IMG/VR virus record: IMGVR_UViG_2617270959_000006
Origin: a virus
Taxonomy: Duplodnaviria > Heunggongvirae > Uroviricota > Caudoviricetes
Length of the DNA stretch: 28,587 nt
Strand: one strand, 5' to 3'
This document shows, one piece after another, positions 3,575-3,728 of the stretch; the first letter of the stretch is position 1; every line of letters starts with the position of its first letter. Under the pieces are notes generated by a model. It ran no database searches and was not told where the DNA came from. It worked only from the letters and a program-made list of their open reading frames with translations. The position numbers were made by a program, and so were the translations under genes.

Positions 3575-3650
3575 GCCGACTTAGCTCAGTAGGTAGAGCA
3601 ACTGACTTGTAATCAGTAGGTCACCAGTTCGATTCCGGTAGTCGGCACCA
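3575..3650 (+). tRNA. tRNA-Thr (anticodon UGU), 76 nt including CCA
   Basis: Cloverleaf folds by hand: acceptor GCCGACT/AGTCGGC, D-loop with GG, anticodon loop CU-UGU-AA, T-loop TTCGATT, encoded CCA. One A-C mismatch in the T-stem (52-62). Confidence 0.85.
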
Positions 3651-3653
3651 TAT

Positions 3654-3728
3654 GCGGGTATCGTATAATGGCTATTACCTCAGCCTTCCAAGCTGATGAT
3701 GCGGGTTTGATTCCCGCTACCCGCTCCA
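3654..3728 (+). tRNA. tRNA-Gly (anticodon UCC), 75 nt including CCA; glyT-like
   Basis: Acceptor GCGGGTA/TACCCGC, anticodon loop CU-UCC-AA; closely resembles host glyT as I recall it. T-loop reads TTTGATT (U at the normally invariant C56). Confidence 0.8.

Follow-up and report, generated by a model that had tools for sequence, protein, structure and literature searches.

The tRNA-Thr(UGU) and tRNA-Gly(UCC) genes carried by the window, by which we mean the whole 28,587-nucleotide stretch of viral DNA that was analysed (IMG/VR record IMGVR_UViG_2617270959_000006), are shown by sequence comparison to be prophage copies of thrU (no difference) and glyT (three differences), each a single-copy gene in the host. 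Taken jointly, the data make it reasonably probable that the pair is a two-gene operon of a Rac-like prophage, made up of host-gene copies that would supply additional decoders, and that U56 in the T loop of its tRNA-Gly is neutral or mildly harmful; we regard this as the best explanation. A sequence-only reading had singled out both T-arms as non-canonical. That of tRNA-Thr is native to thrU, and only that of tRNA-Gly departs from its host counterpart (C56 to U relative to glyT), in a single lineage. The odd T-arms are thus largely ordinary: a host-native anomaly in one tRNA and, in the other, a private SNP on a common prophage allele.

Comparison of the pair with host thrU and glyT

ARAGORN found exactly two tRNAs in the window, tRNA-Thr(tgt) and tRNA-Gly(tcc), both on the plus strand, and no further ones. 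The features of the pair are as follows.

3575..3650, plus strand: tRNA-Thr(UGU), called by ARAGORN and Rfam and the same as host thrU, with CCA encoded and A52 (3626) opposite C62 (3636)
3651..3653, plus strand: spacer TAT, 3 nt, between tRNA-Thr and tRNA-Gly, read from the sequence
3654..3728, plus strand: tRNA-Gly(UCC), glyT-like, called by ARAGORN and Rfam, with U6 (3659)-A67 (3719), U56 (3708) and CCA encoded

The cloverleafs with encoded 3´ CCA that had been read from the letters were borne out for both genes. Against the Rfam tRNA family RF00005, with a gathering score of 29, tRNA-Thr reached 73.8 bits (E 1.3e-14) and tRNA-Gly 62.9 bits (E 1.2e-11), and host glyT, the third gene scored, also passed the threshold, with 64.9 bits. 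For the window pair such scores are not to be expected by chance. The A-C mismatch reported in the T stem of tRNA-Thr (ACCAG/CCGGT) is present, and the A52 x C62 pair was flagged as non-standard by cmscan; the elbow set of this tRNA (G18, G19, T54, T55, C56 and A58) is complete. Equally present is the TTTGATT T loop of tRNA-Gly, with T at canonical position 56 (window 3708), which puts one near-invariant position of the elbow set off and leaves the score still far above threshold. Neither gene has the marks of a pseudogene: the stems of the host genes are all retained, CCA is encoded and only the tertiary partner C56 is altered.

As host reference we used the thrU-tyrU-glyT-thrT-tufB region of a K-12-type chromosome (L001). 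The window tRNA-Thr is identical to chromosomal thrU (L001:401-476) at 76 of 76 positions, and A52·C62 therefore belongs to the normal make-up of E. coli tRNA-Thr(UGU) and is no phage peculiarity. Window tRNA-Gly and host glyT agree at 72 of 75 positions and differ only at 6, 67 and 56. Two of these changes, C6 to T (3659) and G67 to A (3719), replace C6-G67 by U6-A67, a compensated acceptor-stem pair, and the third, C56 to T (3708), lies in the T loop. A search with the 154-nt pair over 5,426 complete genomes of E. coli gave a 98.1% match for the operon on the chromosome, with three mismatches, all in the Gly gene. As to whether the host copies carry the same T-arm bases, then, thrU does, and glyT, with C56, does not.

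Much else is common to the prophage and host genes. The anticodon stem-loops of both window tRNAs are those of thrU and glyT, the U13·U22 D-stem mismatch is found in window tRNA-Gly and host glyT alike, and the glycine identity set, which we take to be G1-C72, C2-G71, G3-C70, U73, C35 and C36, is unaltered in window tRNA-Gly when the sequence is read. Unlike the host operon, the window has no tyrU, no thrT and no tufB-operon flanks, bears the U6-A67 and U56 substitutions, and separates Thr from Gly by 3 nt, where the host operon has tyrU plus 116 nt. No tufB-operon homology was found in the flanks or the spacer of the window pair. The likeness to thrU and glyT minus tyrU had thus been correctly recognized.

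Prophage setting

The element that carries the pair is a Rac-like lambdoid prophage of E. coli, and includes trkG, ynaK and ydaY. Over its full length the window is colinear with the start of NZ_CM128586.1 (bases 1 to 28,587; E. coli 300444, from human stool), with 142 substitutions between the two and none in the tRNA region. Among the sites listed, the differences lie mostly from 26464 on, in gpJ (26464-28587), and this cluster suggests that the tail-tip gene was exchanged by recombination, rather than altered by point mutation. Genes for DUF1367, YbcO-like and DUF1133 proteins precede the tRNAs, which are followed by essD-rrrD-rz and then by trkG, the terminase, the head and tail genes and gpJ. 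Two of these features border the tRNA slot.

2679..3221, plus strand: DUF1133 gene, directly upstream of the tRNAs (Pfam DUF1133, 357 bits; RefSeq DUF1133 family protein)
4508..5681, plus strand: lysis cassette essD-rrrD-rz, bordering the tRNA slot on its downstream side (as annotated by RefSeq in the colinear NZ_CM128586.1)

The DUF1133 protein also matches Phage_antitermQ (PF06530), marginally, at 27.1 bits against a cutoff of 26, which suggests that DUF1133 proteins may be divergent Q21-type antiterminators. Because the protein reaches this threshold, the tRNAs can be placed in the Q-to-lysis slot, and their location in a prophage, with a Q-like gene on one side and essD-rrrD-rz on the other, is confirmed. 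A further gene, annotated as Q-family, lies more upstream in strain Ecol_316.

In the window's strain the early region of the prophage is replaced by a copy of IS421 beside a truncated gpJ: the IS421 (IS4-like) transposase gene, at 58-1170, adjoins a gpJ that is truncated and extends over the start of the record. The intact relative in Ecol_316, which has the same late region and a complete early region, is homologous only from about 1341 on. The ynaK gene (7414-7671) is a pseudogene, and the prophage in the window's strain is probably defective. Upstream of the region shared with the window, Ecol_316 carries a reverse-oriented gene for a hypothetical protein (~477 aa) and a 'nucleoid-associated protein' gene (L002:3807-6270). 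A Hok/Gef gene sits with this two-gene cassette, between the two Q-like genes; the whole set, which the window lacks, could be a defence or moron insert.

Distribution, architecture and constraint of the Thr-Gly pair

IMG/VR was scanned with a pattern anchored on the 3´ end of tRNA-Thr and the 5´ end of tRNA-Gly, with the T loops left free. Fused Thr-Gly pairs were found at at least 120 loci, and the pair is a widespread, strongly conserved lambdoid module that stands either alone or 3´ of ileZ and an argN-like tRNA. Among the matches listed, 54 have Thr-Gly alone, 36 Met(CAU)-Lys(UUU)-Thr-Gly and 14 Met(CAU)-Arg(UCU)-Thr-Gly, with a few other architectures; Met(CAU) and an argN-like tRNA lie directly upstream of Thr-Gly at about 59 of the 120 listed loci. 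The first tRNA of the four-tRNA arrays, Met(CAU), is identical to ileZ of phage 933W, and the second has an argN-like body. The Thr-Gly pair can thus be assigned to the Stx-phage tRNA module, and the earlier proposal that it occupies the site of ileZ-argN-argO in Stx phages was right. In 933W that cluster likewise comes after the Q gene with its terminators and before the lysis and moron genes. A literature search on ileZ, argN and argO and on prophage tRNA-Thr and tRNA-Gly found no paper on the Thr-Gly pair.

The tRNA bodies are far more alike than their surroundings. Pairwise identity is 98% for the bodies outside the anchored positions, against 51-63% for 60-nt flanks, which indicates strong constraint or repeated conversion by host genes. 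Among 121 tallied pairs (the 120 listed IMG/VR loci and the E. coli locus L002), 117 have TAT as their spacer. Among the matches listed, tRNA-Thr is the same as thrU in 69 of 119 full-length copies and tRNA-Gly the same as glyT in 55 of 119, and the compensated U6-A67 pair is present in about 50 of 119 Gly copies (about 45%). Broken pairs are found in about 9 of 119 Thr copies and about 4 of 119 Gly copies, again among the matches listed. Damaging singletons are scattered over other prophage lineages and include G57A, a missing CCA, stems that are broken and one copy with an indel.

These features bear on how the pair arose. Capture of the host operon followed by deletion of tyrU was rejected as a candidate origin, given flanks and spacer without homology. 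The broader reading, that host tufB-operon DNA was recently picked up by accident, then lost tyrU, and is functionless, would account for the Thr...Gly order, as in thrU...glyT, and for sequences that are identical or nearly so. It is hard to reconcile with an exact TAT junction within very different flanks, with the lack of tufB-operon homology on either side or between the genes, and with a conserved promoter and leader upstream and the occurrence of compensated substitutions, and we judge it extremely unlikely.

The argN-like tRNA of relatives combines one body with a varying anticodon: UCG in 933W (L125:1706-1782) and UCU, UUU, UAA or AAA elsewhere. Such variants occupy the second place of arrays, for example at IMG/VR loci L009, L015, L006 and L052, and some of their loops are degenerate. 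The UUU version, present at at least 36 loci, would read Lys codons; tRNA-Lys(UUU) is a classic target of PrrC-type nucleases. Anticodons also change on thrU-derived bodies. Phage SerU-LTIIb, an LT-IIb Rac-like prophage, has such a body with TGT changed to TCT and annotated as tRNA-Arg (L126:1122-1194), and two listed IMG/VR loci have one with TGT changed to TTT and called Lys (L072:3480-3555). These are anticodon shifts within the same tRNA module.

Transcription signals and a conserved leader hairpin

Between the Q-like gene and the lysis cassette, four further features were found around the tRNA genes.

3301..3332, plus strand: terminator-like hairpin past the Q-like gene, with a stem of 13 pairs and a T-rich tail, TTTCTGTGGT (from a pattern scan)
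3484..3511, plus strand: candidate sigma-70-type promoter for the tRNA operon (scan; TTGCGA, 16 nt, TATCAT; 9/12 matches)
3519..3571, plus strand: conserved leader hairpin (GGTTCT-GA-GGGGG ... CCCCT-GA-AGAACC; MFE -21 kcal/mol, z -2.78)
4093..4120, plus strand: strong intrinsic terminator, past the tRNA genes and before the lysis cassette (8-bp stem with 5 GC pairs, then T8)

A conserved, putative promoter of the sigma-70 type appears to precede the tRNA pair, with its -35 element at 3484-3489 and its -10 element at 3506-3511. In the two-tRNA class, 42 distinct upstream sequences that otherwise diverge strongly share a TTG/TATNAT pair, in which TTG at -35 and A2, A5 and T6 at -10 are invariant or nearly so. 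The 933W record annotates a 'pT; putative tRNA promoter' (TTGCAG, 17 nt, TATTAT) 9 nt before ileZ, and the four-tRNA arrays have the same promoter arrangement as 933W pT-ileZ. The hairpin at 3301..3332 has a similar counterpart in 933W, where a CCCGC...GCGGG-TTTT terminator closely follows the Q gene and pR'. A search by consensus for pR' near the end of the window's Q-like gene (TTTACG/TTGATT, 3218-3230) gave no convincing -10 element. The terminator at 4093..4120 (-12.4 kcal/mol, z -3.42) is the only convincing intrinsic one downstream of the tRNAs; weak terminator-like sites after tRNA-Gly (~3760-3775 and 3828-3849) were rejected, as they fold no better than shuffled sequences.

In the two-tRNA class the leader hairpin spans about 53 nt, beginning about 8 nt past the -10 element and ending 3 nt before tRNA-Thr. 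It is composed of an invariant outer stem (GGTTCY/RGAACC), a symmetric GA/GA internal loop and a G-rich/C-rich inner stem. Both stems are kept in the RNAalifold consensus built from 22 distinct leaders, and covariation is seen at two pairs (CG10/UA7/UG4 at one, GC10/GU7/AU4 at the other). The hairpin also occurs at loci L004, L005, L014, L019, L026 and others; the four-tRNA arrays and 933W, where ileZ lies right beside the promoter, lack it. An Rfam scan of 3200-4550 at E<=10 assigned no family to the leader or the downstream spacer, returning only sub-threshold terminator-like matches such as STnc370, STnc100 and isrK. The idea that the hairpin is a degenerate tRNA was rejected, with no tRNA match even at E<=10. 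The leader could be a structure that protects the 5´ end, a processing signal or a remnant.

The likeness to the 933W ileZ-argN-argO cluster extends to the type of promoter just before the first tRNA, the very short spacers and the encoded CCA. The window differs in having Thr(UGU)-Gly(UCC) in place of argO, in lacking ileZ and argN, and in the ~53-nt leader hairpin between the promoter and the first tRNA. The clusters of T4-like phages are also alike in being close-packed and phage-borne and in including tRNAs of the Gly(UCC) and Thr(UGU) types. T4-type copies, however, are only about 84% identical and belong to a larger cluster in a virulent phage, whereas the window copies are essentially host sequence.

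The U56 allele of tRNA-Gly

Among the IMG/VR matches listed, U56 occurs in one of 119 fused Thr-Gly pairs (L115); the other 118 copies are without it, and nearly all keep TTCGATT. The flank haplotype of L115 also occurs with C56, at L026 and L079. We counted the allele in E. coli with a 39-nt query chosen such that identity bands correspond to numbers of mismatches, which gave 5,425 matching chromosome or plasmid records. The exact U56/A67 allele is found in 17 of these records, 346 have one mismatch and 5,060 have two (the host type); glyT-like places beyond one per record number about 1,155 over the same 5,425 records. When a 10.8-kb prophage query (window 1200-12000) was used, only the same 17 U56 records were ~100.0% identical, and the next-best group was 97.6-98% identical. 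The 17 records stem from several countries and continents.

By these counts U56 is a single recent substitution, private to one near-clonal prophage lineage. With 17 near-identical prophages on the one hand and C56 on the same haplotype on the other, U56 is a recent SNP and not a designed or conserved property of the module. Since isolates of several continents still carry the allele, any harm that it does is at least not strong.

The G19-C56 pair forms the exposed face of the tRNA elbow, which is contacted by the ribosome (A-site finger, L5 and L1 stalk) and also by RNase P and the CCA-adding enzyme (PMC4810234), and GlyRS of the alpha2beta2 type contacts the elbow through an elbow-binding module (PMC10164559). 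U56 would exchange this pair for a possible G19·U56 wobble. Since the wobble is possible, we would expect a mild defect and not loss of function.

The sequence-only reading had offered decay of both copies as one explanation. For most of the pair this does not stand, with tRNA-Thr the same as thrU and the stems and CCA kept; only for the U56 allele is decay possible. A reading in which the U56 tRNA-Gly functions poorly and is decaying within a defective prophage, with selection on it relaxed while host glyT supplies the function, draws on the many partners of the C56-G19 elbow face (PMC4810234, PMC10164559), on the restriction of U56 to one lineage, on the IS421 junction and the ynaK pseudogene in the window's strain, and on the scattered damaging singletons of other lineages. 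We consider it doubtful, as the stems of this tRNA are intact and its Rfam score is only 2 bits below that of host glyT, the wobble can still form, the neighbouring tRNA-Thr is untouched and the whole module is under strong constraint; nor has U56 been purged from the 17 records of several countries. Most likely, U56 is a neutral or mildly harmful hitch-hiking mutation that is tolerated because host glyT is intact. That it is an adaptation is not likely, if compatible with the sequence.

tRNA nucleases as an alternative

Phage tRNAs have been proposed to escape host tRNases (PMC10264068), and evasion of tRNA-targeting nucleases had been raised for this pair on account of its T-arms. In addition, HepS of Gifsy-1, a prophage-encoded anticodon nuclease of the HEPN type, responds to J tail-tip proteins of the lambda type and cleaves tRNA-Thr(GGU) and, secondarily, tRNA-Thr(UGU) (PMC13043305), and the window's phage has gpJ. 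The link of HepS to the pair is circumstantial. The defence-evading phage tRNAs resemble the window pair in being phage-encoded and in reading codons that are served by single or low-copy host tRNAs, and the documented or predicted route of escape is a change in the anticodon loop (PMC10264068). These defining differences are absent from the window pair, in which tRNA-Thr equals thrU over all 76 nt and the anticodon stem-loop of tRNA-Gly is that of glyT. Moreover, U56 is confined to one clonal lineage and missing from 118 of the 119 listed IMG/VR copies. We know of no E. coli defence that cuts tRNA-Gly(UCC) in the T loop. The evasion claim is thus unsupported, and the notion that the T-arm changes give resistance to tRNA nucleases (anticodon nucleases, PARIS or retron effectors), as for the tRNAs of T5, seems to us barely credible.

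A related possibility is that the pair serves, through its dosage, to buffer tRNA depletion rather than for codon adaptation, with the additional thrU-type tRNA sustaining Thr decoding when an Abi nuclease such as HepS drains the Thr isoacceptors while lambdoid siphoviruses assemble. It would fit with the attack of HepS on Thr tRNAs and its triggering by siphovirus J proteins (PMC13043305), with relatives that add tRNAs with UUU and UCU anticodons, host tRNA-Lys and tRNA-Arg being targets of PrrC and colicin D (PMC10264068), and with a dedicated putative promoter directly upstream of the pair. An identical tRNA would, however, be cut like the host's, Thr(UGU) is a secondary HepS target, and a non-systematic look at the window identified no tRNA nuclease gene; we think such buffering improbable. 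Still bolder is the proposal that the lambdoid tRNA arrays as a whole (the Thr-Gly pair, ileZ and the anticodon-switching argN-like tRNA) are counter-defence cargo against tRNA nucleases of prophages or hosts, such as HepS, with U56 and the GA/GA leader as adaptive features, and we hold this to be very improbable.

Codon use and a possible role in decoder supply

The role of the pair that fits the data is codon or dosage supplementation, as the sequence-only reading had also suggested, and codon use is compatible with this. Counted over 28 phage CDS (7,830 codons) and, for the host, over 40 CDS from the chromosome of the colinear strain (14,001 codons), ACA is used 13.8 times per 1000 codons in phage genes vs 5.4 in host genes (2.6x; OR 2.9, p 6e-11), GGA 15.1 vs 7.7 (2x; OR 1.9, p 6e-6) and GGG 18.3 vs 11.8. 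As codon evidence, the enrichment of ACA and GGA is non-specific: phage genes are enriched in all rare codons, and AGA (6.7x) and ATA (3.4x) exceed ACA and GGA. The window prophage has no tRNA for AGA or ATA, and the ileZ- and argN-type genes of its relatives are absent. The glyT-type gene is single-copy in the median E. coli genome, and a prophage copy therefore doubles gene dosage.

In the model that we favour, the operon would be transcribed from its own 'pT'-type promoter, with read-through late transcription probably adding to it. The precursor would be cut at the 3-nt spacer by RNase P and 3´ exonucleases, and the products would raise the supply of decoders for ACA/ACG and GGA/GGG, codons that are about 2 to 2.6 times commoner in phage genes. 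The near-identity to the host genes could also come from gene conversion with the chromosomal copies and not from functional selection. In the window's strain, a benefit during lytic growth cannot act now, because the early region has been lost to the IS421 junction.

The host genes and population data account for most of the apparent oddness of the pair, and only the leader hairpin and the anticodon variation of relatives might repay more work. Two substitutions in tRNA-Gly may nevertheless be of use: the U6-A67 tag tells the prophage tRNA-Gly from host glyT in tRNA-seq data, and the clonal U56 allele, as a natural mutant in which the G19-C56 elbow pair has become G19·U56, could serve to gauge the weight of this pair in vivo. 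In lambdoid prophages the Thr-Gly pair is a common and strongly constrained cargo that doubles the dosage of two single-copy host tRNA genes.
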